DNA of 64,000 nt, from contig JAMOPY010000001.1 of the NCBI GenBank assembly GCA_027064305.1, positions 1 to 64,000 of the forward strand. Reading direction: 5' to 3'. A program made the position numbers and the translations under genes. This document shows, one piece after another, positions 7,293 to 53,156 of the stretch. The notes under the pieces were generated by a model. The model saw only the letters and a program-made list of their open reading frames with translations. It ran no database searches and was not told the origin of the DNA. The DNA is from Methanobacteriota archaeon. Its GTDB lineage: Archaea; JAADCQ01; Methanopyri; Methanopyrales; Methanopyraceae. Positions within the stretch are counted from its first letter, which is position 1, and every line of letters starts with the position of its first letter.

Positions 7293-8540
7293 GTGGTGAT
7301 GAGGCCCGTATGGGCGGTAGCGGTGGCGCTTTCGGTGATGCTGGCCCCGGGGTTGGCGGAGAAGGTACCGTCGTCGGTGCCGGGCCACTTGGATCGGGCG
7401 CCTGCCCCCTCGATCGTGAAGTCGGGGAGCGTGTCGCTGGTCTGCTGGCTGGAGCGGGCTGGTTCCGGCGTGGAGCCGGCGGTGCTGGTGGGCCAGGTGT
7501 CCGGGAGCGGGCTGCAGGGTGCGGTGAAGCTGGTGGGGCCGCGGCTGTCGTCGAAGCAGACGTGGTGGTCGGTGGCGCCGTACCGGGCGTCGAAGGACTC
7601 GGTGGAGTTGATCTGGGCGCTGCCGGTCGGTGACGATCGGGTCGGCGTGTACCTGGTGCGCGTGTCCAAGGGCGGCAAGGGGTGGTCCGCGAGCTTCGAT
7701 CCGGTGCGGTTGTACGATCATGTGCCGGTGGTGGTGAAGGGCGGTGATGGGTTCCCGGTGTGCGCCGTGGCCAGCCTGGGAGGGGATCGGGTGCTGGTGG
7801 TGTACTACAACGGCGGCTCGATCCGGGCGCGGGTGCTGGAGTACGTGAGCGTCAAGCAGCTCGGGAAGAAGGTGTGGAGGTGGGCGCTGGACCAGAAGAC
7901 GGGGCTGCCCTGGGAGCTGGAGGTGTTGAAGGGGGTGTCGAAGAACGTGTGGCTGCGGGTGGCGAGCGTGACGGCGGGCAAGGAGGTGCGGTGGGTGCTG
8001 TCGGTGTTCGATCCGGTGAAGGGGGTGTCGAAGCTGGTGGTGCTGAGGCCGTCCGGGAGCGTCGTGGCCGTGGAGCGGGTGATCGACGTGCCCGGCAAGG
8101 GGCTGGCGGTGGTGTACCCGGGCCGGCTGCCGGTGCCGGTCCTGGTGTGCGCGGGCGGCGCCCTGAAGGCGTACGTGCTGACCGGCGGGTGGAAGCTGTC
8201 GGGCGGTGCGGCGCTCGCGCAGGGGCTGCCGGGATGGGTAAGGGTGCCGGGACTGGCAAGGTGGAAGGATGGGTACGCGGCGGTGGTAGGTGGTAACGGC
8301 CCGAGGGTGATCGTGTTCGGGCTGAGCGGTAACGGCGTCTCGAAGCGGTACGAGGTGAGCCTGCCGGTGAGTTTCCTGTACCGGGTGAGCGCGTCGAACT
8401 TCGGCGGGTGGATGCTGGTCGCGGGTTACGGCAAGGGTGGCCTGGAGGTCCTCCCGGTGAACGTTCAGCCGCCCTCGTCCGGGGGTGGCGGTGGCCCGGT
8501 GCTCCCGTTCGTGCCGGTGCCCCGGCGGCGGAGGGAGTAA
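7293..8540 (+). CDS. Secreted protein, beta-propeller-like, with C-terminal GGGGG-PVLPFVPVP-RRRR tail
   Basis: 415-aa ORF, signal peptide (AVAVALSVMLAPGLA), same tail as upstream gene. Confidence 0.8.
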   Translation: MVMRPVWAVAVALSVMLAPGLAEKVPSSVPGHLDRAPAPSIVKSGSVSLVCWLERAGSGVEPAVLVGQVSGSGLQGAVKLVGPRLSSKQTWWSVAPYRASKDSVELIWALPVGDDRVGVYLVRVSKGGKGWSASFDPVRLYDHVPVVVKGGDGFPVCAVASLGGDRVLVVYYNGGSIRARVLEYVSVKQLGKKVWRWALDQKTGLPWELEVLKGVSKNVWLRVASVTAGKEVRWVLSVFDPVKGVSKLVVLRPSGSVVAVERVIDVPGKGLAVVYPGRLPVPVLVCAGGALKAYVLTGGWKLSGGAALAQGLPGWVRVPGLARWKDGYAAVVGGNGPRVIVFGLSGNGVSKRYEVSLPVSFLYRVSASNFGGWMLVAGYGKGGLEVLPVNVQPPSSGGGGGPVLPFVPVPRRRRE

Positions 8541-8560: not shown

Positions 8561-8587
8561 GCTATGTTATGAAATTTGAAACGTTTG
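8561..8587. promoter_or_regulatory. Copy of recurrent AT-rich palindrome (core TGTTATGA-AAT-TTGAAACG, degenerate)
   Basis: Aligns with copies at 27320, 41978, 45075 and 52854; about 25 bp after a stop codon. Confidence 0.45.
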
Positions 8588-16124: not shown

Positions 16125-16665
16125 GTGCTGGAGCCACTAACGCTGGTTCTGCTCGTCCTTCCCGGGGGACCCGGGGCGACTTCACAGGACCGGTTCCTGA
16201 GCATCTCGAAACGCTCCTGGCCAAGGGGGGCAGGGGCGGCGGTAGTGGCCGGGGTCAGGCTCTCCCGGGCCGGTGAAGTGCTGGAGTCCGGGGAGCTTTC
16301 CCGGGGCGCTCAAGGGGCGCCGGTTTCGGGGGCATCACTTCAGGCTGGAGCGCGAGCGGCTGCTGATCCTGCACCGGAGGGTGCGGGCTCACTACGTGGC
16401 ATCGTTCCTGTGTAAGGCTCTGGCGACTCCCGTGATGTTCCTCGCGTTCGTCGCCTTCCCGGGGCTGGCCGACGTCCTGGAGCGTGAGGACGCCCCGACC
16501 GCGTGCTTCTACGCCCTGATCGCGGCGATTTTCCTCCCCCAATTCAGACTCAGGGTCGAGGTGTCGGAGATGGAGGAAGCCGTCGAGGCCTTTTCGGACG
16601 CCGTGCTCGCCGGCAAGGGTTCCCAAAGACTGCCTCCGCTCCTTCCGAGGGCACGGCGTTCCTAA
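16125..16665 (+). pseudogene. Frameshifted paralog sharing the N-terminal leader of 15370-16077
   Basis: 16125-16235 is a diverged DNA copy of 15370-15480 (LEPLTLVLLVLPG/DPG.FTGPVPEHLETLLAKG); a TM-containing ORF follows in another frame. Confidence 0.5.
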
Positions 16666-16915
16666 GTGAATGCTCTCGGCGCTGCTCGTGGTGGTGCTGA
16701 CCTGGACGCCGCTCGGGAGGGTCAAGAGCCGGACCCTCCTGCTACGTCGCTGACGACGGCCGTGACTCATCCGGTGCTCCCGGGACTCTGGGTGCCGAGG
16801 TGGAGCTCGTGGGTGGTCGGATGAGCCGCCAGGGACGCCGACGTCCGCCCGACCGGCCCGCGGTCGTGAATCAAGCCCTTCCCTCGGGAGGCTGCGCCGA
16901 GGCGGGACCGCCGGT

Positions 16916-27315: not shown

Positions 27316-27342
27316 CTAACGTTACGAATGTCAAAACGATTG
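27316..27342. promoter_or_regulatory. Recurrent palindrome (core CGTTACGA-ATG-TCAAAACG) between pdxS and thyA
   Basis: Matches the copies after the three tRNA genes. Confidence 0.55.
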
Positions 27343-27361: not shown

Positions 27362-28258
27362 CTAGTCGCCCCGCGTCTGCATCCGCTCCTCCTCCGGGAT
27401 CTCGGAGATGTCGAGGCCGCGCATGGCGACCTCATCGCCCAGGTTCTTGGAGACCTCGGCCACGACCTCGGGATCGTCGTAGTAGGCCGTGGCCTCCACG
27501 ATGGCCTCGGCCATCTCCTGCGGCCGGTCGGACTTGAAGATGCCGGACCCCACGAAGACGCCGTCCGCGCCCAGCTGCATCATGAGGGCCGCGTCCGCCG
27601 GGGTGGCGATGCCGCCGGCCGCGAAGTTCACGACGGGTAGCCGGCCCAGGCTGGCCACCTCCGCGACCAGGTCGAAGGGGACCCCGTACTCCTTCGCCTT
27701 CTGGTACAGCTCCTCCTTATCCAGGTGGGACAGCTCGGAGATCTCCCGCCGCATGATGCGCATGTGCCGCACGGCCTCGGCCACGTTGCCCGTACCCGCC
27801 TCGCCCTTCGTCCGGATCATCGCGGCCCCCTCGGCGATCCGGCGCAGGGCCTCGCCCAGGTTCCGCGCGCCGCAGACGAACGGGACGTCGAACTCCCACT
27901 TGTTGATGTGCCGCTCCTCGTCCGCGGGCGTGAGCACCTCGGACTCGTCGATCATGTCGACCCCGATGGCCTCCAGCACCTGCGCCTCGACCACGTGGCC
28001 GATCCGGCACTTGGCCATCACGGGGATCGTGACGTGGTCCATGATCTCCTCGATCTTGGCCGGGTCGCACATGCGGGCCACGCCGCCGGCCCTCCGGATG
28101 TCGGCCGGGACCTTCTCCAGGACCATGACCGCGACCGCGCCGGCGTCCTCGGCGATCTGGGCCTGCTCGACGTTGGTCACGTCCATCACGACGCCGCCCT
28201 TCAGCATGCGGGCGAAGCCCGTCTTCACCCGCCACGTGCCGGTCTTCACCCTTATCAC
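27362..28258 (-). CDS. pdxS: Pyridoxal 5'-phosphate synthase lyase subunit
   Basis: [41 protein letters not shown]. Confidence 0.96.
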
Positions 28259-41793: not shown

Positions 41794-41809
41794 CGAAAAG
41801 CTTAATACC
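41794..41809 (+). promoter_or_regulatory. BRE/TATA promoter of tRNA-Glu
   Basis: GAAAAGCTTAATA about 30 bp upstream of the tRNA. Confidence 0.6.
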
Positions 41810-41839
41810 TAGGATCCGGCCGGGGTTGCCCGGAGGGAC

Positions 41840-41969
41840 GCCCCGGCGGTGTAGCCCGGTCAAGGGCCCGCGGATGACCGCGGGCCCGCCGATATCATGC
41901 GGGACTTTCGAGGCCCGTCCGGGCCGGAGACATCCCGCGACCCGGGTTCAAATCCCGGCCGGGGCACCA
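41840..41969 (+). tRNA. tRNA-Glu(TTC) with two introns (D-loop 41863-41893; 37/38 41911-41931), C8, encoded CCA
   Basis: Cloverleaf forms once both BHB-flanked introns are removed; anticodon TTC 41907-41909; TTCAAAT T-loop. Confidence 0.92.
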
Positions 41970-41972
41970 ACC

Positions 41973-42000
41973 CAAATCGTTACGATTATCATAACGTTTG
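41973..42000. promoter_or_regulatory. Recurrent palindrome (core CGTTACGA-TTA-TCATAACG) after tRNA-Glu
   Basis: Near-perfect inverted repeat just 3' of the CCA. Confidence 0.6.
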
Positions 42001-42010
42001 CCCGCCGGGC

Positions 42011-42706
42011 TCACGGGGAGACCTCCTCCGGGCTCCCCTCCTCCACGATCTGGCCGTCTCGGAGCACGATCACACGGTCGGCCCACTCGATGAGGGAGAG
42101 GTCGTGGGTGACCACGACGACCGTCTTCCCCTCGTCGCTTAGCCTCCTGAACACCTTTATGATCCGACGCGAGTTCCTGGTGTCCAGCTGACCGGTGGGC
42201 TCGTCCGCCAGGATCACTTCGGGATCGTTGGCCAGCGCCCTGGCGATGGCCACGCGCTGCCGCTCCCCACCGCTCAGCTGGTTCGGGAACTTGTCGAAGT
42301 GCTCCTCCGAGAGCCCGACCTTGAGTAGCAGGCGCTTGGCCAGCTCCTCGTCCTCGCGTCCCGCCAGCGTCATCGGGAACATCACGTTCTCCAGCGCGGT
42401 CAGCGTCTCGATGAGGTTGAACTCCTGGAAGACGAAGCCCACGTACCGGCTGCGGATGCGGGCCAGCTCCCGGTCGCTGAGCCTTGAGATCTCCCGGCCC
42501 GCGATCCTCACCCGACCGGAGGTGGGCGTGTCCAGCGCCCCCATGATGTGGAGCAGGGTGGACTTCCCGGACCCGGAGGGTCCCACGACCATCAGGAACT
42601 CTCCGCGCCGGACCCTCAGGTTCACGCCCTTGAGCGCCTCCACCCGGGTTGAACCCGAGTCGTAGACCTTCCTCACGTTCTCCAGCTCGATGACCGGGTC
42701 GGTCAT
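42011..42706 (-). CDS. ABC transporter ATP-binding protein (LolD/MacB-like)
   Basis: GPSGSGKST, LSGGERQRVAIARAL, LADEPTG. Confidence 0.93.
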   Translation of the reverse strand: MTDPVIELENVRKVYDSGSTRVEALKGVNLRVRRGEFLMVVGPSGSGKSTLLHIMGALDTPTSGRVRIAGREISRLSDRELARIRSRYVGFVFQEFNLIETLTALENVMFPMTLAGREDEELAKRLLLKVGLSEEHFDKFPNQLSGGERQRVAIARALANDPEVILADEPTGQLDTRNSRRIIKVFRRLSDEGKTVVVVTHDLSLIEWADRVIVLRDGQIVEEGSPEEVSP

Positions 42707-42716
42707 CGTGAACCCC

Positions 42717-43832
42717 CTACTCGTGCCGGAGGGCCTTCACCGGGTCGACCTTGGCCGCCTTCCACGCCGGGTACAGGCCGGAGAGCACGCCGATGCCGGC
42801 GGCCACCAGGAACCCCTCCAGTATGACGTCCGGCGTCACGCACACGGTGATCGGCTTGCCCTTGAACTTTTGAATCACCTGGACCAGCGCGTACGTCCCG
42901 GCGGTACCGATCAGGCAGCCCAGCGCGCCGCCCGCCAGCGAGATCAGCAGCGATTCCATCAGGAACACCTTCATCACGCGGGCCTTGGTGGCGCCCACGG
43001 CCTTCATGACACCGATCTCCCGACGCCGCTCGAGGACGGACATGAGCATGGTGTTGGCGACGCCGAGACCGCCGACGAGTCCCGCGATGCAGCTGAGCAC
43101 CAGACCCGCCACCTCCACGGTCCTCAGGCTGTTGACCATGTTGTGCACGGCCTTGCTGGTCTCGATCGCCTCCACCCCCGGCACCCGCCGCTCGATCTCC
43201 CGCTTCACCCGCCTCGGGTCCCGCGTCTGCACGAACACGCAGCTGATCCCGTTCCCCCGCAGCGGCTTCACGCTGTTCAACGTCGTGATCATGCACATGT
43301 TGGCCAGCTGGGAGGAGGTGCGGAACTCACCGGCGAGGCGGAGCCGCACCCCGCTCAGGTCCACCGGGTCCCCGACCCGGGGGCGCATCTGGTTCCAGAC
43401 GAGGCTGCCCAGCGCGGCCTCTCCGTCGCGCGGGAGCCGGCCCCGGATCGGCTGCACCTTGGACCCGACGACGAAGTCGTACTGGCCGCCCTCGACCGCC
43501 GCGATCATGATCGGGGTCCGGCGGTTCCCGATCGTGACCACCCGGTTGTTGAACCAGACGGCCACCGTGCGCTGCACGCCCGGGACGCGGCGGACCTTCT
43601 CCTCCACGGACTGATCCAGCGCGCTGGAGAGCGGGTCCGGGGCGGTCTTGGACTTGACGATGAGCGAGGCGGAGCCGCCGATCGCCACCCGGATGTCGTG
43701 CTGTAGCCCCTTGGCCACCGAGGACACGCCCACCACGGCCGAGATCCCGATCGCCACGCCCAGGATCGTGATCAGCGATCTCACCTTTCTGCGGGCGATG
43801 TTTCTAACCGCCATCTTCATTGTTATCATCAC
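42717..43832 (-). CDS. ABC transporter permease (FtsX/MacB family)
   Basis: RSLITILGVAIG, NTMLMSVLERRREIGVMKAVGA, YPAWKAAKVDPVKALR. Confidence 0.92.
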   Translation of the reverse strand: MMITMKMAVRNIARRKVRSLITILGVAIGISAVVGVSSVAKGLQHDIRVAIGGSASLIVKSKTAPDPLSSALDQSVEEKVRRVPGVQRTVAVWFNNRVVTIGNRRTPIMIAAVEGGQYDFVVGSKVQPIRGRLPRDGEAALGSLVWNQMRPRVGDPVDLSGVRLRLAGEFRTSSQLANMCMITTLNSVKPLRGNGISCVFVQTRDPRRVKREIERRVPGVEAIETSKAVHNMVNSLRTVEVAGLVLSCIAGLVGGLGVANTMLMSVLERRREIGVMKAVGATKARVMKVFLMESLLISLAGGALGCLIGTAGTYALVQVIQKFKGKPITVCVTPDVILEGFLVAAGIGVLSGLYPAWKAAKVDPVKALRHE

Positions 43833-43896
43833 CGTTCACCACTCCCGCAACCGCTCAAGTGTCCCCCCGCAACCCCGGGTGCTCCCGGTGAATTCC

Positions 43897-44613
43897 TTAA
43901 ATTGATTCCAGGGATTTCTTTGGCGTGCCCCGACGCACGGGCTTTCCATAAATCCTTTTAATCTCCTCAGCCTTGACCGACTCACCCTCCCGGCGGACCG
44001 TGGGTCGCCCGTCCGGCTTGATCGCGTGCACGCGGAACAGCATCCCGTCCAGCTCGTAGACCTCCCCGACGGTGAACTCCTCGTCGCGGTCCACCTCGAC
44101 CTTCTCCGAAATCGTGTACCCGGAGGGCAGGTTGATCGAAACGCCGATGCGGGCCGGGATGTCCAGCGAGACGGCCCATACGGACTGGATGTCCCGCACG
44201 AGAGCCCTCTTCACGCTGTCCTCGTCGTAGGTGGCGATGTTCGTGACCTCGACGCGCTCGCCCTCCACCTCCAGCTCGTCCCCGACCTCCAGCTCCTCCC
44301 ACGGGTCCAGCTCCACCTCCTTGCACTCGGACTCCTCGTACCGGCTGATCGTCACCTTCACCTTTTTGGGCCGGTAGAAGACCAGCCGGGCCGGGTTCAC
44401 GGTCCCGCAGCTCTCGCACCGGGCCAGCACGTTGGCGACCAGCCTCGGCACGCCCCGCTCGTCGGGCCCCTTCTCGTGCACCGTGGCCCGCACGACCTCC
44501 TGAGGTACCTCCTCGTCCGGGGAGCATCCGGAGCACGGCGCGTAGATGACGCGCCCCTTCAGCTCGTCGTCGGAGAGGTCCTTCACCGTGGTCTTCGTGT
44601 CGATCGTGATCAC
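43897..44613 (-). CDS. HVO_0476-family Zn-finger protein
   Basis: CSGC...CESCG and repeated beta modules ending IKRIY. Confidence 0.75.
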   Translation of the reverse strand: MITIDTKTTVKDLSDDELKGRVIYAPCSGCSPDEEVPQEVVRATVHEKGPDERGVPRLVANVLARCESCGTVNPARLVFYRPKKVKVTISRYEESECKEVELDPWEELEVGDELEVEGERVEVTNIATYDEDSVKRALVRDIQSVWAVSLDIPARIGVSINLPSGYTISEKVEVDRDEEFTVGEVYELDGMLFRVHAIKPDGRPTVRREGESVKAEEIKRIYGKPVRRGTPKKSLESI

Positions 44614-44642
44614 GTTCCCACCCCCTCCGGGGGCGGTTCGGG

Positions 44643-45059
44643 GTGGAGGTGCGGATCCGGGCCCGTGGTCATGAGAACGTAACGGGCCGGCACGGGAGCA
44701 CGTTCGAGATCACCCGGGAGCCGGAGATCGGCCCCACGGCCGACTGCATAATCGGGGTGAGGGCGGATCGGGCCTGCGCCGACCTGCCGGAGGGGTTCAA
44801 ACGGGCGCTGCGCTCCGGGGCTCGGGTGGAGGTGGAGCTGAGGTCCGGGGACCTTCGGGATCGGGTCGTGGGCCGCGGGGACCCTCGCCTTAAACTCTCC
44901 GACGAGGTTAGCATGGTGTTCCGGCGGAGCGATTACGTGGATGAGCGCACCGTGCTCGTGCGGTGCGATAAGGCGGCGCGCGACCTGGATCGGCGCCTGG
45001 TCCGGCGGCTTCGGGACCCGGACGCGGTGCTGGAGGTGCGGTTGCGGGTTCTGGGGTGA
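44643..45059 (+). CDS. DUF371 family protein
   Basis: ARGHENV.G.H.STFEIT...DCIIGVRAD. Confidence 0.85.
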   Translation: MEVRIRARGHENVTGRHGSTFEITREPEIGPTADCIIGVRADRACADLPEGFKRALRSGARVEVELRSGDLRDRVVGRGDPRLKLSDEVSMVFRRSDYVDERTVLVRCDKAARDLDRRLVRRLRDPDAVLEVRLRVLG

Positions 45060-45070
45060 CCCGGCGCCCC

Positions 45071-45097
45071 CAATCGTTAAGATTCTCGTAACAATTG
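45071..45097. promoter_or_regulatory. Recurrent palindrome (CAATCGTTAAGA-TTC-TCGTAACAATTG) after tRNA-Arg
   Basis: Imperfect 12-3-12 inverted repeat, 4 bp from the tRNA 3' end. Confidence 0.6.
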
Positions 45098-45101
45098 GCG
45101 G

Positions 45102-45179
<78 letters not shown>

Positions 45180-45224
45180 TTCCCCGTGCGCCCGGCACCG
45201 CGGGGCGCTTAATAAGATTGCGGG

Positions 45225-45836
45225 CTAGCGGCCGCGGCGACCGCGCCGTCCCTCCGGCACGAACACGCGGTACTTGTCCCTGGTCTCGCCCTTCAGCTCC
45301 GCCAGCACGCGCTCCTTGATCATGTCCTTCGGGTGACGGCGCAGGCCCTTAACCCGCTCCCGGATCTCGTCCAGGCTCTCGAACGGTTCCTTCTCCCGCT
45401 CCTCCAGGATGCGCTCGAGCGTCTTCTTTCCGATGCCGGGGAGCAGCTCCAGCTGGTGCAGCCTCGGGGTGATCGGGCGGGCCTCGTTGAAGAACCGGAC
45501 GAAGTCCTCCTCGTTCTCCTCGATGATCTTCTCGATCGCGTAGGGGAGCTCCTCCTTGGCCGTCTGCGTGAGGTCGTCGTAGTGGAGCCGGCGGTCCACG
45601 TGGTGGATCTTGTCCCGCTTGCCCCGGCCCACGTACACCTCCTCGTGCAGGTCCAGGTAGACGTCGTCCTTGGGCGTGAGTTCCAGGAGGATGAAGAAGT
45701 CCTTCCCGACCGCCTGGGCCATCGGCTTGCGCTCGTGCGGGGGGGCGTCGGGGCGGTAGGGGAGGAAGTCCAGGACGATCGCGTACTCCTCGTACGGTCG
45801 CCCTTTGGGGGGTTTCTTGTACAGCAGCTCCACCAT
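45225..45836 (-). CDS. DUF655 putative RNA-binding protein
   Basis: EEYAIVLDFLP, AQAVG..FFILLE, RLHQLELLPGIGKK. Confidence 0.88.
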   Translation of the reverse strand: MVELLYKKPPKGRPYEEYAIVLDFLPYRPDAPPHERKPMAQAVGKDFFILLELTPKDDVYLDLHEEVYVGRGKRDKIHHVDRRLHYDDLTQTAKEELPYAIEKIIEENEEDFVRFFNEARPITPRLHQLELLPGIGKKTLERILEEREKEPFESLDEIRERVKGLRRHPKDMIKERVLAELKGETRDKYRVFVPEGRRGRRGR

Positions 45837-45843
45837 CGCCGGG

Positions 45844-46251
45844 TCACTCCTCCGATCCTTCTTCCAGCTTGTCCCGGATCTCCTCGGTGACCTCAAGGAT
45901 CTCCTCGATCACGGACTCGTCGGCCCTTCTTAGTAACCTTTTACCGGCGGACTCGAGCACCGTCTTGACTTCTTCCTCGCTGCTCGGCAGCACGTCCAGG
46001 ATTCGGTGGACGAGGACCTCGATGGTCCGCTCGTTGGCGGTGAGGTCCCGGGCCACGGTGCGGAGCCGCTCCTTCGCCCGCTCCAGCGTCTCCTCGTCCA
46101 GCCGACCGAACTTTTTCAGGTACTTGACCGCCTCCCGCTGGTCGTAGGTGAGCTCCGGCTCCCGCTCCTCCAGGACCCGATCGACCGTCCTGCGCGCCTC
46201 GTGGACGCTGATGGGGCGTCGGCCGCGCACGCGGAGTGAGATGGGGGGCAA
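45844..46251 (-). CDS. rpoF: RNA polymerase subunit F (Rpo4)
   Basis: ELTYDQREA..YL.KF, ILDVLP...EV; conserved rpl21e-rpoF-DUF655 order. Confidence 0.82.
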   Translation of the reverse strand: MPPISLRVRGRRPISVHEARRTVDRVLEEREPELTYDQREAVKYLKKFGRLDEETLERAKERLRTVARDLTANERTIEVLVHRILDVLPSSEEEVKTVLESAGKRLLRRADESVIEEILEVTEEIRDKLEEGSEE

Positions 46252-46264
46252 GGGGGAGGCGCCC

Positions 46265-46573
46265 CTACTTCATTTCCGGCTGCTCCTGCGGTCGTAGGTG
46301 CTCCGGGCCCACGATCAGCTTCTTCTCCTTCCCGCCGTCCCGCACCTTGACGATGTACGCTCGGCCCTGGCGGCCGATCACCTCGCCCGTACGCCCGTGG
46401 AAGCGGGGGTGCGGCATGCCGCTGTGGACGCTGGGGTCGATGACGATGTGCACCTTGTCACCCTTCTCGTACTCGTACATCAGCGGGCTCAGCGGGGAGA
46501 GGCCGCGCTCCCGGGGCTTCTTCCGCAGCTTCTTCCGCGTCCGGCTTCGGAAGCCCTTGGACTTCCTAACCAT
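46265..46573 (-). CDS. rpl21e: 50S ribosomal protein L21e
   Basis: [35 protein letters not shown]. Confidence 0.96.
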
Positions 46574-46997
46574 CCGGGCTCACCCCCAGCTCGTGCAGGA
46601 CGATCGCGAGGGCGGCCAGCTCGCCCACCTTGGCGTTCACACCGACGGTGAGGTCCGGCTCCACGTCCAGCTCGTCCCGGCGCTCTACGGGCACGATCAG
46701 TAGCGTGTCGGACGGGTTTAATTTGTTCAGCCCGCCGCGCTCCTCGGGGTCGATCAGGGCGAGTCGTCCCTCCGCGAACCGGAGCGCGTCCTCTAGGGAG
46801 TCGGTGACCATCACGGGGACGCCGGCCCGCTCCTCCGGGTGCTCGATGACCTGCTGGATCCCGTCCAGGGCCGACTTGGAGGTAGGATCCGAGTAAACGA
46901 GCAGCTCGGCGCCCAGGTTCCCGGCGATGAGCGCCGCGTGGTTCACGCGGAAGTGGCTGAAGGGGCGGTGGTAGATGACGCGGACCACGGGGCTCAC
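46566..46997 (-). CDS. SPOUT-like hypothetical protein (COG4080-like)
   Basis: GTG start overlaps pgk stop; SALDGIQQV...V.DSLEDA...ELAALAIVL. Confidence 0.55.
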
Positions 46998-48211
46998 CCC
47001 GTGAAGGGACACGTCGCCACCGCGTCCAGGGCGGGGAGCCGCTCGCCCGCGAGGAGTCGGAGCATGGCGCCGCCTCCGGTGCTCACGTGGTCGATGCCGT
47101 CGTACGCCCCGCACGCCTTGGCGGCGGCGATGATGTGCCCGCCGCCGATGACGGAGAACCCGTCCGCGGAGGCGATGGTCTCGAGCACCTCGTACGTGCC
47201 CCGCTCGAAGCCGCGCTCCTCGTAGACGCCCATCGGACCGTTCGCGATGATCATGCCGGCCCGCCGGATCTCCTCCCGGTACAGGTCGATGGTCTCGGAC
47301 CCGATGTCATGGATGGGCTCGTCCGCCGGCAGCTCCTCGACGGGTACCTCTCGACGCTCGCCCCCGGCGTTCAGGGCCACGTCCCGCGGGAGCAGGATCT
47401 TGCCGTCATCCTCATCGAGGAGCTCCCGGGCCTCGTCCAGGTACCGGGTATACCCCTTCTCCTTCAGGATCCGGCGGGAGGGCTTGCCGATGTCCACGCC
47501 GGAGGCCCAGAGGAAGAGGTTGCCGACGAGGCCGCCCAGGAGGACCCGGAGCACGTTGTCCATCTGGAGGGCCCGGCGCACGACCTTGATCGCGTCGCCG
47601 ACCTTGGACCCACCGATGACGAGGACGCCATCCTCCATCTCGTTTTTGACCATGGTCTCCAGCACCTCGATCTCCCGCTCCATGACCCGGCCCACGCAGG
47701 AGGGGAGGCGGCGGGTGAAGCCGACGAGGGACGCGTTGGAGCGGTGGGCGGCGGCGAACGCGTCGTTCACGAACACGTCGAACAGCGGGGCGAGGTTCCG
47801 GACCAGGTGCCGCCGGGCGTGCCACTCCGGGTCCCGGTTCATGCGCTCCTCCGAGTAGAACCGGACGTTCTCGAGCAGCAGAACCTGGCCCGGGTCGAGG
47901 GATCGGATCTTCTCCTTGGCCGTGGGTCCGAACACGTCCGGCACGTACTCGAACTCGTCCAGCTCCCGCTCCATGATCTTGGCGTGCGGCTCCAGCGTGG
48001 TGAAATCGTCCTCGCCCGGGCGACCCTGGTGGGCGAGGATGGCGACCCGGGCGCCCTCCTCGACGAGCTCCCGGATGGTGATCAGATGGCGTCGGATGCG
48101 CTCATCGTCCTCGATCCTGCCGTCCACGATCGTGGAGTTGATGTCCACGCGGAGGAGGACCCAGCGCTCCTCGAACTCGAAGTCGTCCATCGTGCGCAGG
48201 TCCTCGTACAC
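46994..48211 (-). CDS. pgk: Phosphoglycerate kinase
   Basis: RVDINS, AHQGRPG, LLENVRF, NDAFAAAHRS, NGPMGVYE, HVSTGGGA. Confidence 0.96.
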   Translation of the reverse strand: MYEDLRTMDDFEFEERWVLLRVDINSTIVDGRIEDDERIRRHLITIRELVEEGARVAILAHQGRPGEDDFTTLEPHAKIMERELDEFEYVPDVFGPTAKEKIRSLDPGQVLLLENVRFYSEERMNRDPEWHARRHLVRNLAPLFDVFVNDAFAAAHRSNASLVGFTRRLPSCVGRVMEREIEVLETMVKNEMEDGVLVIGGSKVGDAIKVVRRALQMDNVLRVLLGGLVGNLFLWASGVDIGKPSRRILKEKGYTRYLDEARELLDEDDGKILLPRDVALNAGGERREVPVEELPADEPIHDIGSETIDLYREEIRRAGMIIANGPMGVYEERGFERGTYEVLETIASADGFSVIGGGHIIAAAKACGAYDGIDHVSTGGGAMLRLLAGERLPALDAVATCPFTG

Positions 48212-48223
48212 CCGGTTCTCCCC

Positions 48224-48790
48224 CTACTGGATCTTGGCGTGACGCTCCCACATGTCGGACTCATCAACACCCAGCTCCTCCGCCAACTGGGCGGCAAGAC
48301 CGTCCAAGAACGACAACATGAGCAGCTCGGAAAACGTCCGCAGGATGACCTCCTCGGGCTCCGGCAGCACGACCAGCACGTCCGCGCGCTCGGCGATCTT
48401 GGACTCGGCGTTCATCGTGACGGCCAGCACGTCCGCGCCCTCCCTCCGGGCCACGTCCGCGGCGTAGTTCACGAACTCCGTGTCGCCGGAGACGCTGAGC
48501 GCCACCAGCAGGTCGCCCGACTTGATCGCCCGCTCCGTGCTGTGCCCGACGACGTAGCACCGGGCCCCCATCTGCACCAGCCGGACCGCGAAGCACTCGC
48601 CGATGAGCCCGGTCCTCCCCATCCCCACGATGAAGATGCCCCGGTCCTCCCTGATCTTCTCCGCCAGCAGGTCCAGCGCCCGCCGCACGTCCTCCTCCGG
48701 AAGGTTCTCGCACGCGTGCTCGATCACTCGGGCCTCGTTCCTCATGATCTCAACCAGCCGTTTCAAGGTCCCCGCCCCGGTCGTCGTCAC
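48224..48790 (-). CDS. hxlB: SIS-domain 6-phospho-3-hexuloisomerase
   Basis: GMGRTGLIG..FAVRLVQMG, SVSGDT, terminal RHAKIQ. Confidence 0.82.
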   Translation of the reverse strand: MTTTGAGTLKRLVEIMRNEARVIEHACENLPEEDVRRALDLLAEKIREDRGIFIVGMGRTGLIGECFAVRLVQMGARCYVVGHSTERAIKSGDLLVALSVSGDTEFVNYAADVARREGADVLAVTMNAESKIAERADVLVVLPEPEEVILRTFSELLMLSFLDGLAAQLAEELGVDESDMWERHAKIQ

Positions 48791-49485
48791 TCCAGGCCGG
48801 AGATCAGGTCCAGGAGCGCCTCCTTGGGGTCCTCGGCCAGCACGACGCCCGAGGCCACCAAAACGCCATCGCTACCCAGCTCGACCGCCGCGCGCACGTC
48901 CGAGCCGTCGGTGATCCCCGCCCCGCACAGGACCGCGGTGTCCTCGGACACCTCCCGCACCGCCTCCACGCTCCGCTCCACCACCTCCGGGTCCGCCTTG
49001 GACACCGGAGTACCCGTCCCGATGAGCTCCGGGGGCTCCACCGCCACCGCGTGCGGCTGCAGCGCGCCCGCGGCCCGGGCCGCCATCGCGTCGCTCGCGC
49101 AGACGATGGTCAACAGCCCCTCGTTCATGCACGCCCGGCACACGTCCTTCAGGTCGTCCAGCCGCATCCGACGCTCCGAGTGATTCAGCAGCGTCCCGTC
49201 CGCCCCGGCCTCGACCACCATCTCGGGGGTCACGTGACCCGTCCGGCTCCCGGGCTCGGCCGCGTCCACGGCCTGCGCCAGCACGAGCACGCCGTCCCCG
49301 TCCACCGCCCGCGCCACCCGATACAGGTCCGTGTGCGCCGGGCAGACGCCGATCTCCACCCCGGTCTCCTCCGCCACCTCCACCGCGACCTTGGCGAGTC
49401 GGACGGCGCGGTCGCCCACCGCCTCCGAGTACGTCTTGAAATTGATCACGATGGGGGGAATTCGCAAGGGGATCGACCCCCTCAC
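48787..49485 (-). CDS. tpiA: Triosephosphate isomerase (alternative TTG start at 49467)
   Basis: INFKTY, LLNHSERR, AVEPPELIGTG, GVLVASG. Confidence 0.95.
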   Translation of the reverse strand: MRGSIPLRIPPIVINFKTYSEAVGDRAVRLAKVAVEVAEETGVEIGVCPAHTDLYRVARAVDGDGVLVLAQAVDAAEPGSRTGHVTPEMVVEAGADGTLLNHSERRMRLDDLKDVCRACMNEGLLTIVCASDAMAARAAGALQPHAVAVEPPELIGTGTPVSKADPEVVERSVEAVREVSEDTAVLCGAGITDGSDVRAAVELGSDGVLVASGVVLAEDPKEALLDLISGLE

Positions 49486-50126
49486 GCCCGCCCGACGATC
49501 AGCCTATCTACCTTGTCCCCCGGGAAGACTCCGGACTCCACGACGCCCGGAACGGACGCGAGCTCCCGCTCCAGCTCCCCGGGATCCCACTCCCCCTCCA
49601 CCTCCAGGTCCACGATCGGGTTGCCGTGATCCGACGCGACCGGTCCGTACTTACCCTCGCAGCGCCGCGGCCGCACCCGACCAAACCTCCGTAGCTCCCG
49701 CAGGGTCAGCTCGTAGCAGCCCCGCAGCACCTCCACCGGCACCGGCACCTCCCACAGGTCCTCCACCAGCTTCGACTCGTCCACGATCACCCAGAACTCC
49801 TCCGCCGCGTAGTCGAGCGCCTTCTCCAGCGCGTGGCAGGCGCCCCCACCCTTGATCAGGTTCCGGTCCTCATCCACCGCGTCCGCCCCGTCCACGGCCA
49901 CCGGGATCTCCTCCGGCGGCGTCGCCACGACCTCCAGCCCCAGCTCCCGGCAGACGGACAGCGTCCCCGGGATCGTCGTGAACACCCGGACCCCCGACCG
50001 ACGCTCCGCCAGCTCCCGGAGGAACGCCTCCACCGTCGTCCCCGCGCCCACCGCCACCAGGTCAACGCCCTCGGACTCCAGCGCATCCACCGCCCTCCGC
50101 GCCGCGTCCCGCTTCGCCTCCTCCAA
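49482..50126 (-). CDS. rpiA: Ribose-5-phosphate isomerase A
   Basis: GAGTTV, DGADAVD..LIKGGGAC...EK, SDHGNPIVD, PGVVESGVF. Confidence 0.93.
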   Translation of the reverse strand: MEEAKRDAARRAVDALESEGVDLVAVGAGTTVEAFLRELAERRSGVRVFTTIPGTLSVCRELGLEVVATPPEEIPVAVDGADAVDEDRNLIKGGGACHALEKALDYAAEEFWVIVDESKLVEDLWEVPVPVEVLRGCYELTLRELRRFGRVRPRRCEGKYGPVASDHGNPIVDLEVEGEWDPGELERELASVPGVVESGVFPGDKVDRLIVGRA

Positions 50127-50192
50127 CCCTCGCACCCCTCCCGAAATCATTCTAAGCGCTCGAGGGCGCGCTCGGCACGCGGGTGCGGCCGA

Positions 50193-51842
50193 ATGGGCGA
50201 ACCCCGGGATAAAATCGTGGTCATCGGCGCGGGCCCCAACCGCATCGGTCAGGGGATCGAGTTCGACTACTGCACCGTGCACGCGGTCTGGGCCATCCAG
50301 GAGGAGGGCTACCGGGCCATCATCGTCAACAACAACCCGGAAACCGTCTCCACGGACTACGACACCTCGGACAAGCTCTACTTCGAGCCCCTCACCCTAG
50401 AGGACGTGCTCAACGTCGTCGAGAAGGAGCGCCCCCTGGGCGTGCTCACCCAGTTCGGCGGGCAGACGGCCGTCAACCTCACCGTGCCGCTGGCGGAGCG
50501 CGGCGTCCCGATCCTCGGCACCGACCCGAAGGACGTGGACAAGCTGGAGGACCGGGACAAGTTCTCCAAGCTGCTTAAGCGTCTGGGCATCCCACAGCCC
50601 GAGAGCGGGACGGCCCGGGAGCCGGACGAGGCGGTCGAGATCGCGGAGCAGATCGGGTACCCGGTCCTCGTCCGCCCGTCCTACGTGATCGGCGGCCGGG
50701 CCATGGAGATCGTGTACGACGAGGAGGAGCTGCGCCGGTACATCGAGGAGGCCGCGCGCGTCTCGCCCGAGCACCCGATTCTGATCGACAAGTTCATCGA
50801 GGGCGGGATCGAGTGCGAGATCGACGGGGCGCGCGACGAGGCCGGGCACCTCCTCGTCCCGCAGATCATGGAGCACATTGAGGAGGCGGGCGTGCACTCG
50901 GGCGACTCGGCCTGCGTGGTGCCCCCGCAGACGCTGCCCGAGCACGCGCAGGAGACGATCCTCGAGTACGCGCGCGACATCGCCGAGGCCGCCAGCGTGG
51001 TCGGCCTGATCAACATCCAGTTCGTGTACGACCCGGAGGACGACACCGTCTACGTGATCGAGGCGAACCCGAGGGCGAGCCGCACGGTCCCGTTCATCAG
51101 CAAGGCCACCGGGGCGCCCCTGGCCAAGATCGCCACGAAGGCGATCCTCGGCCGTGAGATCCCGGACATCGTGGAGGAGATGGGGCTGGAGTACCCGGGC
51201 GACGCCCGGACCTTCGACCTCGACGTCGTCGCCGTGAAGGAGGCCGTCTTCTCCTTCGAGAAGTGGCCGGGCGTGGACCCGGTTCTCGGCCCGGAGATGA
51301 AGTCGACGGGCGAGGTGATGGGCATCGACCGCACCTTCGGCGCGGCCTACTGGAAGGCCCAGCTGGCCGCCGGCCACGAGCTACCGCTGGAGGGAACGGT
51401 CGTACTCTCCGTCGCCGATCGGGACAAGCCGGAGATCGTGCCCGTGGCCCGGAAGCTCAAGGAGCTCGGGTTCGACCTGCTCGCTACCCGCGGGACGGCC
51501 CGGTTCCTGCGGAACCACGGGATCGAGTGCGGGATCGTGAAGAAGGTCTCCGAGGGGCACCCGAACGTCGTCGACCTGATCCGCGAGGGTGAGGTCGACC
51601 TCGTGATCAACACGCCCACCCGGGGCAAGGACGCGCGCCGCGACGGCTACGCGATCCGGCGCGCCGCGGTCAAGTTTAAGGTCCCGTACATCACCACCGT
51701 CGCCGCCGCCAGGGCCGCCGCCGAGGCGATCGAGATGGTCAAGGAGAAGGGCGTCGCCGTGAACTGCCTGCACGACCTGCACGACGGGACCTGGACCCCG
51801 AAGCGCGTCAGCCCGGAGGAGCTCCGGGGGGCCTCCAATTGA
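50193..51842 (+). CDS. carB: Carbamoyl-phosphate synthase large subunit, C-terminal half (split CarB)
   Basis: Begins at GAGPNRIGQGIEFDYC; one ATP-grasp domain plus MGS domain. Confidence 0.93.
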   Translation: MGEPRDKIVVIGAGPNRIGQGIEFDYCTVHAVWAIQEEGYRAIIVNNNPETVSTDYDTSDKLYFEPLTLEDVLNVVEKERPLGVLTQFGGQTAVNLTVPLAERGVPILGTDPKDVDKLEDRDKFSKLLKRLGIPQPESGTAREPDEAVEIAEQIGYPVLVRPSYVIGGRAMEIVYDEEELRRYIEEAARVSPEHPILIDKFIEGGIECEIDGARDEAGHLLVPQIMEHIEEAGVHSGDSACVVPPQTLPEHAQETILEYARDIAEAASVVGLINIQFVYDPEDDTVYVIEANPRASRTVPFISKATGAPLAKIATKAILGREIPDIVEEMGLEYPGDARTFDLDVVAVKEAVFSFEKWPGVDPVLGPEMKSTGEVMGIDRTFGAAYWKAQLAAGHELPLEGTVVLSVADRDKPEIVPVARKLKELGFDLLATRGTARFLRNHGIECGIVKKVSEGHPNVVDLIREGEVDLVINTPTRGKDARRDGYAIRRAAVKFKVPYITTVAAARAAAEAIEMVKEKGVAVNCLHDLHDGTWTPKRVSPEELRGASN

Positions 51843-52714
51843 TCGTCCTCTCCACGGCCGAGGGGAACCGGCTCGCCCGCCGGCTGGCCGACGCGCTGGA
51901 CGCGGAGCTCGCCCCGGTGGAGGAGGACCGGTTCCCGGACGGGGAGCAGATCGTTCGGGTGCCGCCGGAGCTGGAGGGGACGGCGATCCTGGTCCACTCG
52001 ATGGTACCGCCCCAGGACGAGAACCTGGTCAAGGGCCTCATCGCGCTCGACGCCGCCCGCGAGAACGGGGCCGACCGCGTCATCGCCGTGATCCCCTACG
52101 TGGCCTACTCCCGACAGGACCGGCGCTTCGAGCCGGGCGAGCCCGTGTCCTTCCGCGCCGTGGCCCGCGCGATCTCCGCCAACGCCGACGCGTTCGTGAC
52201 CGTGGACCTGCACGAGCCCCGCACGCTCGAGTTCTTCGACGTGCCCGCCGAGAACGTGACCGCGGCCGAGGAGATCGGGAGGTACCTGCGGGAGCGGTTC
52301 GAGGGCGAGGAACTCGCGGTCATCGCCCCGGACGAGGGCGCCCGGGAGCTGGCGGAGCGCGTCGCCTCCGTCTGCGACGCGGAGCACGATCACCTGGAGA
52401 AGGAGCGGATCAGCGGCGAGGAGGTGCGCATCCACCCCAAGGAGCTGGACGTGGAGGGGCGGACGGTGGTGCTCGTGGACGACATGATCGACACGGGTGG
52501 AACCATGATCGAGGCCGCCAGGGCGCTGCGGGAGCAGGGGGCCGGGGAGCTCTACGCCGCCTGCACGCACGCGCTGCTCACCCGGAACGCGGCGTCCCGG
52601 CTGCTGGCGGCCGGCTTCCGGGACATCATCGCCACGGACACGGTCCCCACGCCGTACGAGCGGGTCAGCGCCGCGAGCCCGGTCGCGGAGGCGCTCCGCC
52701 GCCTGACGGGGTAA
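51839..52714 (+). CDS. prs: Ribose-phosphate pyrophosphokinase
   Basis: FPDGE, PYVAYSRQDR, APDEGA, VDDMIDTGGT. Confidence 0.94.
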   Translation: MIVLSTAEGNRLARRLADALDAELAPVEEDRFPDGEQIVRVPPELEGTAILVHSMVPPQDENLVKGLIALDAARENGADRVIAVIPYVAYSRQDRRFEPGEPVSFRAVARAISANADAFVTVDLHEPRTLEFFDVPAENVTAAEEIGRYLRERFEGEELAVIAPDEGARELAERVASVCDAEHDHLEKERISGEEVRIHPKELDVEGRTVVLVDDMIDTGGTMIEAARALREQGAGELYAACTHALLTRNAASRLLAAGFRDIIATDTVPTPYERVSAASPVAEALRRLTG

Positions 52715-52754
52715 ACCTTTAAAGCCTCCGTGGGGCCACCCGGGGACGGAGGAC

Positions 52755-52845
52755 GCCGGGGCGGCCGAGCCCGGTCCAAGGCGCGGGACTGCTAATCCCG
52801 TGGCCCGTATGGGCCGCCCGGGTTCAAATCCCGGCCCCGGCGCCA
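52755..52845 (+). tRNA. tRNA-Ser(GCT), C8, long variable arm, encoded CCA
   Basis: GCCGGGG-C-GGCCGAG...CGGGA-CTGCTAA-TCCCG, variable arm, TTCAAAT, CCCCGGC-GCCA; upstream TTTAAA box near 52718. Confidence 0.95.
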
Positions 52846-52849
52846 CCCG

Positions 52850-52876
52850 GGATCGTTATGACAGACATAACGTTTG
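52850..52876. promoter_or_regulatory. Recurrent palindrome (core CGTTATGA-CAG-ACATAACG) after tRNA-Ser
   Basis: Same motif and position as after tRNA-Glu and tRNA-Arg. Confidence 0.6.
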
Positions 52877-52892: not shown

Positions 52893-53156
52893 ATGGCCCT
52901 CAAGGTGGGTGACTACGCCCGCTACGTCCGGACGGGCACCGTGGGCAAGATCGTCGACGTGAAGGAGGAGGGCGGACGACGCTGGTACAAGCTCGACTCC
53001 ACGGGACTGTACTACCGGGAGGACCAGCTGGAGCGCGCGGAGCGGGTGAAGCGTAAGGAGCGCCGGGAGGACGTGCAGGACGTTCTAAAGAAGATCAAGG
53101 AGCTCGAGGAGGCGTTCAGCGAGGCGACGGGCGACCACGTCTGCGAGGGCGGTTAA
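52893..53156 (+). CDS. DUF2098-like methanogen protein
   Basis: GDYARYVRTGTVGKI...LDSTGLYY, C-terminal CEGG. Confidence 0.75.
   Translation: MALKVGDYARYVRTGTVGKIVDVKEEGGRRWYKLDSTGLYYREDQLERAERVKRKERREDVQDVLKKIKELEEAFSEATGDHVCEGG

Follow-up and report, generated by a model that had tools for sequence, protein, structure and literature searches.

Why should one short, AT-rich palindrome lie directly behind three tRNA genes and two protein genes in a single stretch of archaeal DNA? The question is raised by 64,000 nt from a member of the Methanopyraceae (positions 1 to 64,000 of contig JAMOPY010000001.1, assembly GCA_027064305.1; hereafter the window), in which a preliminary description had pointed out five such copies; all five were read where it had placed them. 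The palindrome is a real and strongly non-random element. Judged from its sequence context, it apparently marks transcript ends generally throughout the genus, and it behaves like paired half-sites in DNA. The explanation favored here, to which we would give a probability of about 0.5, is that of a genus-wide, sequence-specific transcript-end signal, leaky and bidirectional, with a symmetric dimer as the putative reader of its duplex DNA. The core observation is already in print; its wider distribution and the DNA-level reading are new as far as our searches show.

Distribution of the palindrome

At its full length the element is a dyad of 23 bp (consensus ATCGTTAYGA-N3-TCRTAACGAT). The placement 3' of three tRNA genes and two protein genes thus stands as first described, but the length of 27 bp does not, and the (A/T)TTG tail seen after each copy consists only of palindrome positions 22–25 plus flank. 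The fixed spacing around a variable centre is borne out by the curated sites, in which G4, T5, T6 and A18, A19, C20 are invariant (66/66), positions 1–7 and 17–23 are strongly conserved and 8–10 and 14–16 weakly, and the centre is free. The window holds six matches to GTTAYGANNNTCRTAAC with up to three mismatches, where 1.68 ± 1.32 are expected and where none of 100 shuffles reached six. One of these, a GC-rich match at 44231, looks like chance and was not counted as a site; a weak match to the position weight matrix (PWM) at 49430 (13.9 bits) was likewise left out.

The element was followed through the genome that holds the window (G000; 1.21 Mb in 50 contigs, 69.8% GC, 89% complete) and the whole sequence of one congener (G002; 1,694,969 bp in a single contig, 61.2% GC). 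The tRNA coordinates of G002 match those given for Methanopyrus kandleri AV19 by Su et al. (2013), so that published RNA coordinates can be used on it; the parts of that paper drawn on throughout are the abstract, section 13 and Table S1 parts 1, 2 and 4, in which the motif is not mentioned. With a PWM derived from the copies at tRNA genes and then symmetrised, a threshold of at least 14 bits and reversed sequence as the control, G000 has 77 sites (0 in the control) and G002 has 108 (3 in the control). The histogram of mismatches to the consensus in G000 is bimodal, with 75 sites at 0–5 mismatches, 15 at 6 and 132 at 7. Such a scan, and a check of conservation in other Methanopyrus genomes, had been proposed in the preliminary description. 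The former brought out a strong 3' positional bias at stable-RNA and highly expressed genes; the latter found the motif in all five congeners searched, with 40–82 matches each at up to three mismatches, while 15 other archaeal genomes gave 0–1 matches each (0–2 for the reversed pattern). The motif is neither tRNA-specific nor local to the window. It has drifted between genomes, with C8/G16 in G000 against T8/A16 in G002, and some copies are irregular: one in G000 (C46:41186-41208) has a doubled left half-site (ATCGTTATCGTTATCGTAACGAT), and overlapping matches of the same kind lie at C40:12792/12804.

Part of this has been seen before. The available text of a 2017 paper in BMC Genomics (PMC5217627) describes CGTTA(N)9TAACG as lying about 10 bp downstream of the tRNA genes of M. 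kandleri AV19, calls it specific to M. kandleri and absent from other genomes, and guesses at a 3'-maturation signal. That pattern is palindromic and corresponds to positions 3–7 and 17–21 of the 23-mer. Motif and genus are those of the present case, but the motif was linked there to tRNA genes only, whereas here it is found at all stable RNAs and many open reading frames (ORFs) in six species, and its half-site behavior and the placing of RNA ends before it are added. No further description or functional study was found in a full-text literature search, outside which most subscription journals lie. Pentamers shared with a topoisomerase V paper (PMC9489208) occur only in unrelated crystallisation oligonucleotides, and this lead was rejected.

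At stable-RNA genes the motif always lies on the 3' side. In G000 it begins 5–10 nt past the 3' end of all 25 testable credible tRNA genes (6 nt in 14 cases, 7 and 8 nt in four each, and 5, 9 and 10 nt in one each). ARAGORN, allowed introns of up to 130 nt, made 34 calls in this genome: these 25, two at contig ends, one of which shows the first 11 bases of the motif, and seven intron-mode calls with neither a CCA end nor the motif, which were treated as false. In G002 the motif stands at 5–9 nt in 35 of 36 ARAGORN calls, the 36th being absent from the published list of 35 tRNAs, and in four further congeners at 5–12 nt in 34 of 34 tRNAs (30 loci taken from 118 Rfam tRNA matches). Where a G002 tRNA gene does not encode its CCA, the motif is correspondingly nearer the discriminator base. 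Between CCA and motif, most G000 tRNAs have a spacer of 6 nt, and in G004 and many G002 tRNAs it is 8 nt long and of a recurring AACCGGGA type, making spacer lengths bimodal overall, at 6 and 8. Roughly two thirds of all sites lie away from tRNA genes. The motif lies 6–9 nt past the end of 5S rRNA, about 5 nt past the published 3' end of the signal recognition particle (SRP) RNA and about 15 nt past the model end of RNase P RNA; behind 16S and 23S rRNA it lies beyond the processing stems, about 75–85 nt and 146 nt downstream, respectively.

The motif is also found behind a few C/D box small RNAs (sRNAs) and behind several small transcription units that are unannotated and have TTTTAAGTAT-type promoters. 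A general link to C/D box sRNAs was rejected, since few of them adjoin a site (nos. 39, 53, 59 and 69 among those in Table S1 parts 1, 2 and 4 of Su et al.). Among the unannotated units are some of about 60–80 nt (G002 ~1104125-1104203, 1106745-1106823 and 1357540-1357621; G000 C31:39700-39794) that share the TTTTAAGTAT-type promoter, start with the conserved (A/G)TGA(A/G)CTCGCTG, have the palindrome at their end and may form an undescribed small-RNA family. Directly behind the 16S palindrome lies a C/D-box-like RNA (G000 C40:12804 and 12963; G002 (L033) 16593-16693), which is circular in RNA contigs ('goes back 71' joints); a second palindrome closes it in G000 but not in G002.

Protein genes, as called by a codon-score script of our own, account for many of the remaining sites. 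Within 80 nt past an ORF stop there are 34 sites in G000 and 47 in G002, some serving two convergent genes, and only three and two sites, respectively, lie inside ORFs. The distance from stop to motif has a sharp onset at 12 nt: none of 39 (G000) or 55 (G002) cases falls at 0–11 nt, and most lie at 12–32 nt. (Negative distances, one in G000 and two in G002, may be ORF mis-calls.) The motif-bearing genes of G002 are largely highly expressed ones, including those for S10, S15, L7Ae, L10, EF-2, EF-1beta, glnA, P-II, the thermosome, a histone, mcrB, mch, rubrerythrin and an abundant TRAM-domain mRNA. For 23 of 37 G000 ORF-site pairs with a blastp match, the motif is kept at the stop of the G002 ortholog, usually at a distance within a few nucleotides.

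How does the motif relate to the ordinary archaeal end signal? Runs of five T (T5) within 80 nt past the stop follow only about 3% of genes (33 of 1049 in G000, 42 of 1417 in G002), and in the 3' flanks that bear a palindrome they number 0 of 46 and 2 of 60, so that the two signals are nearly mutually exclusive. tRNA flanks contain at least four T within 60 nt in three of 25 cases in G000, and T5 in none of 35 in G002; at the three tRNA genes of the window, which had been said to have no oligo-T terminator, no run of four or more T was found in the flanks read. Oligo-T ends do exist in M. kandleri, where Table S1 of Su et al., in the parts named above, has '3' poly-T' entries. The motif and oligo-T are two coexisting end signals. 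The standard end-processing machinery is not missing either, since FttA/aCPSF1 is encoded (TIGR03675, 898 bits in G000 and 901 in G002, above the cut-off) and an RNase Z-like protein gene is present as well. (In G000, at C15:25992-28995, a single ORF separates the FttA/aCPSF1 gene from a perfect palindrome (0 mismatches) behind it, probably by coincidence.)

Half-sites, RNA ends and read-through

Does the palindrome act as an RNA hairpin or as a site in duplex DNA? Watson-Crick pairs in the tRNA-oriented sites number 202 of 250 in G000 and 252 of 350 in G002, against 202.5 ± 2.8 and 248.9 ± 5.3 after shuffling of the right arms between sites. C.A mismatches outnumber G.U pairs on the sense strand (16 to 9 in G000, 34 to 20 in G002). 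Twenty orthologous single-copy tRNA sites of the two genomes differ by 57 one-arm changes, 53 of which make or break a pair, and by seven compensatory and six non-compensatory double changes. The mean fold energy computed by ViennaRNA at 37 °C is −5.3 kcal/mol in G000 and −3.5 in G002. At 98 °C, where the values rest on extrapolated 1 M salt parameters, all 77 + 108 = 185 sites are predicted to be open chains of energy 0, the perfect palindrome included, which agrees with the earlier argument that an RNA hairpin would be unstable near 100 °C. No U run follows the stem; only position 24 leans to T (29/66), and the flanks are G/C-rich.

The half-sites, in turn, seldom stand alone. Of 107 ATCGTTA/TAACGAT 7-mers in G000, 81 belong to palindromes, while coding sequence holds 21 and intergenic sequence 5. 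The lack of compensation, the instability at 98 °C and the rarity of lone half-sites together suggest that the sequence of both arms is read, and not their pairing. A symmetric dimer on duplex DNA, as had been proposed, fits better than an RNA stem; the behavior of the half-sites speaks for such a site, and the protein on it is putative. Lone ATCGTTA half-sites do occur in three near-identical stretches of about 65 nt in G002 (1112842, 1328991 and 1363774), which may be CRISPR leader sequences, one being about 400 nt from a listed CRISPR cluster 5 spacer (1363370).

Where do transcripts end? The RNA data come from assembled contigs of four small-RNA libraries of a single study (X1–X4, 2013), which contain 42–50% of the words of a 10-kb G002 stretch. 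Among the ends listed, 5S contigs with non-genomic A tails end 6–11 nt before the motif. At a site between a plus-strand ORF and the minus-strand tRNA-Arg(GCG) gene, plus-strand pieces from two runs stop 6–7 nt before the left edge, and a piece that spans the tRNA ends 6 nt short of the right edge of the same site (among the pieces listed). Stretches that no RNA contig covered were left out of account. For C/D sRNAs 53, 59 and 69, the distance from the published 3' end to the motif downstream is exactly 7 nt. From these contig ends and published sRNA ends, the RNA 3' end seems to be set about 6–7 nt upstream of the motif, from either side, a position that can be called weakly shown. According to Su et al., 3' processing comes first in tRNA maturation, and in the parts used here only 5' leaders are tabulated.

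Genes also follow the motif closely. In many co-directional cases a ribosome-binding site (RBS) and start codon lie 12–21 nt past it, with starts clustering at 12–15 nt and no AT-rich promoter between. The order motif-then-gene is kept between G000 and G002 for tRNA-Ser(GCT)-DUF2098, tRNA-Ser(GGA)-aspartokinase, tRNA-Arg(TCG)-small ORF and mcrB-mcrD. In the mcr cluster (G002 L038, 611026-616281; G000 C25:4799-6200) the order, as read in G002, is promoter, mcrB, motif, mcrD, mcrC, TATA-like CCCTTTAAAATGA, mcrG, mcrA. Here the motif would part an abundant mcr product from two low-abundance ones, as a partial terminator would do, and the arrangement suggests three expression levels in one 'operon'. 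The roadblock terminator or insulator first suggested for the palindrome is supported in its position (at gene ends, between convergent genes and in place of T5 tracts), and a physical block is what we infer from it; a tight block is disfavored, because the promoter-less mcrD, DUF2098 and aspartokinase genes need read-through and because one RNA contig crosses a site.

What reads the palindrome?

Under the favored explanation, a symmetric dimeric protein would bind the half-sites ATCGTTA and TAACGAT in duplex DNA, and RNA polymerase arriving from either side would stop or be released about 6–7 nt before the motif. Such a block would set the 3' ends of tRNAs, 5S rRNA, SRP RNA and some C/D RNAs almost at their mature position. 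It would also be leaky, so that promoter-less genes behind it (mcrD-mcrC, DUF2098, aspartokinase) would be expressed at a lower level by read-through. The distribution, the conservation, the half-site behavior and the predicted hairpin instability are the observations from which this picture starts. A more specific version, in which a dedicated, genus-specific DNA-binding dimer acts as a bidirectional terminator, would be the first archaeal protein roadblock, would write mature 3' ends with little or no trimming, and would let its leak rate set the expression of promoter-less genes behind tRNAs and mcrB; it is put forward tentatively, with the odds somewhat against it.

Several points weigh against a dimer on DNA. 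Multisubunit RNA polymerases stall about 12–15 nt before the edge of a roadblock; the spacing of 6–7 nt is shorter and would fit only if the edge of the protein lay inside the motif. (The available text of a review, PMC10310618, contains no figure for this stalling distance.) At tRNA sites the proximal arm deviates less from the consensus than the distal one (4 against 16 deviations in G000, p = 0.012; 14 against 40 in G002, p = 0.0005), which a perfectly symmetric dimer does not predict; ORF sites are without this asymmetry (23 against 21 in G000, 37 against 53 in G002). The half-site cores are 14–16 bp apart, about 1.5 helical turns. Among the ends listed, two 5S contigs end at motif positions 7–8 and, among the pieces listed, one contig crosses the site between the ORF and tRNA-Arg(GCG), so that polymerase can enter and cross the motif. 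The contig ends themselves are weak evidence, drawn from 24 of 368 loose ends and 32 of 1578 pieces at four sites, and the use of our own gene caller is a further limitation.

The main rival is a signal in the RNA: a hairpin held by an RNA-binding protein, with an endonuclease (possibly FttA/aCPSF1 or the RNase Z-like protein) cutting 6–7 nt on its 5' side, which would free the upstream RNA and leave a 5' hairpin on the downstream mRNA. Ends at a fixed 5–9 nt before the motif are what such a cut would produce, both nucleases are encoded, read-through transcripts must exist, and the clearance of at least 12 nt between stop and motif, like the starts 12–15 nt after it, fits ribosome footprints on RNA. 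We nevertheless regard this as rather unlikely, given the absence of covariation, the many uncompensated mismatches and a fold predicted to be open at 98 °C even for a perfect copy. Moreover, conservation is lowest in the loop and the pairs next to it, the part that hairpin-binding proteins usually read. FttA of Thermococcus cuts 22 nt behind the RNA 3' end, according to the available text of PMC11616081; such a cut here would put the polymerase near +15, before the second arm is made. An improbable alternative does without any factor: an AT-rich island in a genome of 61–70% GC would give a weak RNA-DNA hybrid at about 100 °C, from which polymerase falls off as at oligo-T. The motif does take the place of T5 tracts, with almost no co-occurrence, and both extended 5S ends fall within the left arm, which is U-rich (UUGUUAU), yet weak hybrids need neither a fixed sequence nor a dyad, and here six positions do not vary and half-sites almost never occur alone.

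The dedicated tRNA 3'-maturation signal speculated on in the available text of PMC5217627 would account for the motif at 5–10 nt behind every credible tRNA gene and for the better preservation of the proximal arm at tRNA sites only; as the sole function it is contradicted by the two thirds or so of sites at rRNAs, SRP RNA, RNase P RNA, C/D sRNAs and 34–47 protein genes, and is very unlikely. As little credit can be given to a mobile or recombination element (REP-like, after the repetitive extragenic palindromes of bacteria, or att-like), a chromatin boundary or a promoter. Repeated extragenic palindromes at gene ends do recall bacterial REPs, but no Y1/RAYT transposase gene was found in G000 (89% complete) or G002 (PF01797 in 0/2 genomes, a control matching in 6/14 known genomes), and the copies stand at orthologous places and near-identical distances. 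The recombinase-site and chromatin-boundary options raised at the start thus find no support, there being no Y1 transposase gene and the positions being conserved between species. A promoter was considered for the ORFs that start 12–15 nt behind the motif, and rejected. With the RBS directly behind the motif, there is no space for a TATA box at −26, no TATA-like sequence is present, and the motif fails when tested as a promoter with a transcription factor B recognition element (BRE) and a TATA-like box about 26 nt upstream of the start of transcription. Real promoters in these genomes look different (e.g., GAAAGGCTTAATAG and AAATTTTAAATATA): BRE/TATA promoters of the ordinary kind stand before tRNA, 5S and mcr genes (GAAAAGCTTAATAC, AAATTTTAAATATA and CCCTTTAAAG; also CTTAATA, TTTAAATA and CTTTAAA).

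Window copies, related systems and consequences

The five copies in the window and the genes beside them are collected in Table 1. The tRNA-Glu gene was called by neither ARAGORN nor Rfam, which in the window call tRNA-Arg and tRNA-Ser only; a D-loop intron in tRNA-Glu is known for M. kandleri from the parts of Su et al. used here. The gene has its own canonical promoter, GAAAAGCTTAATAC, at ~41795-41810. Behind pdxS, the next co-directional gene (thymidylate-synthase-like) starts 17 nt from the palindrome, and this copy is not conserved after pdxS in G002. The ORF upstream of the copy at 8563 has no Pfam family and no G002 ortholog match. No AT-rich promoter lies between the tRNA-Ser palindrome and the DUF2098 ATG, and DUF2098 presumably depends on read-through from the tRNA promoter.

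Table 1. Palindrome copies in the window and the genes beside them.
Feature	Position	Strand	Context	Basis
Palindrome copy ATCGTTACGATTATCATAACGTT	41976-41998		6 nt past tRNA-Glu CCA; 12 nt past stop of convergent ABC-ATPase gene	PWM 41.7 bits
Palindrome copy ATCGTTAAGATTCTCGTAACAAT	45073-45095		Between convergent genes: 13 nt past DUF371 stop, 6 nt past tRNA-Arg CCA (minus)	PWM 37.8 bits
Palindrome copy ATCGTTATGACAGACATAACGTT	52852-52874		6 nt past tRNA-Ser(GCT) CCA; DUF2098 ATG 18 nt further	PWM 31.8 bits
Palindrome copy AACGTTACGAATGTCAAAACGAT	27318-27340		21 nt past pdxS stop (minus)	PWM 35.2 bits
Palindrome copy ATGTTATGAAATTTGAAACGTTT	8563-8585		22 nt past stop of ORF 7293-8540	PWM 27.8 bits
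tRNA-Glu(TTC) gene	41841..41969	+	Two insertions (D-loop; beside anticodon arm)	Read by eye against published intron-less tRNA-Glu (Su et al., Table S1, parts named in text)
tRNA-Arg(TCT) gene	45102..45179	-	CCA encoded	ARAGORN, Rfam
tRNA-Ser(GCT) gene	52755..52845	+	CCA encoded	ARAGORN, Rfam
pdxS (SOR_SNZ)	27362..28258	-	Upstream gene of 27318 copy	Pfam, E 2.4e-109
ORF, 415 aa ('surface protein' of the preliminary description)	7293..8540	+	Upstream gene of 8563 copy	Codon-score ORF call
ABC-transporter ATPase gene	42011..42706	-	Convergent with tRNA-Glu; 41976 copy common to both	ORF call and Pfam
DUF371 gene	44643..45059	+	Convergent with tRNA-Arg; 45073 copy common to both	ORF call and Pfam
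DUF2098 gene	52893..53156	+	Start 18 nt past tRNA-Ser palindrome; same arrangement in G002	Gene call

Which known systems does the palindrome resemble? The roadblocks of RNA polymerase I (Pol I; Reb1, Nsi1, TTF-I) and of mitochondrial 16S transcription (mTERF1) also use a DNA site behind highly transcribed stable-RNA genes, with RNA ends a short fixed distance upstream; here the ends appear to fall 6–7 nt before the motif for 5S rRNA, one mRNA, one pre-tRNA and three C/D sRNAs, a few sites known from contigs and published ends. The sites of Reb1, TTF-I and mTERF, however, are asymmetric and polar, whereas the Methanopyrus motif, a putative protein-binding site, is a dyad serving convergent genes. 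No Myb (PF00249) and no mTERF (PF02536) domain was found in either genome (0/2 each, G000 and G002); for mTERF the control genomes are likewise without a match, which makes that result uninformative. Archaeal oligo-T/FttA termination has the same genomic role, and FttA is encoded here, but the motif has no T tract or upstream U-rich RNA. Bacterial intrinsic terminators and the REPs or bacterial interspersed mosaic elements (BIMEs) are likewise inverted repeats after genes and between convergent genes, and can attenuate downstream operon genes. In contrast to intrinsic terminators, the stem here is AT-rich, predicted to be unstable at the growth temperature and without a U tail, and it is the sequence rather than the structure that is fixed; many extragenic palindromes near gene 3' ends are shared with REP/BIME, but the RAYT gene is not. 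The histone mRNA stem-loop, with SLBP and CPSF73, is also a small, sequence-conserved 3'-end signal, and a nuclease of the CPSF73 family is available here; there, however, the RNA is cut 3' of the stem-loop and keeps it, while here the RNA seems to end 5' of the motif.

What would such a signal mean for the biology of Methanopyrus? To our knowledge, archaeal termination has been understood only in terms of oligo-T tracts plus FttA. If a protein reads the motif, it would represent a new kind of archaeal terminator, like the Pol I and mitochondrial roadblocks in function, not in ancestry: a fixed 23-bp dyad behind every stable-RNA gene and the strongest protein genes, in genomes where T5 tracts follow so few genes. 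With a putative binding site defined, the factor can be fished out directly. If true, this explanation would account for M. kandleri pre-tRNAs without 3' trailers (3' processing being the first step in the parts of Su et al. named above), for the fact that nearly all M. kandleri tRNA genes encode CCA, and for the expression of promoter-less housekeeping genes behind tRNA genes. In the annotation of Methanopyrus genomes, the palindrome offers a sharp means of telling where transcripts end and where small-RNA genes have gone unannotated.

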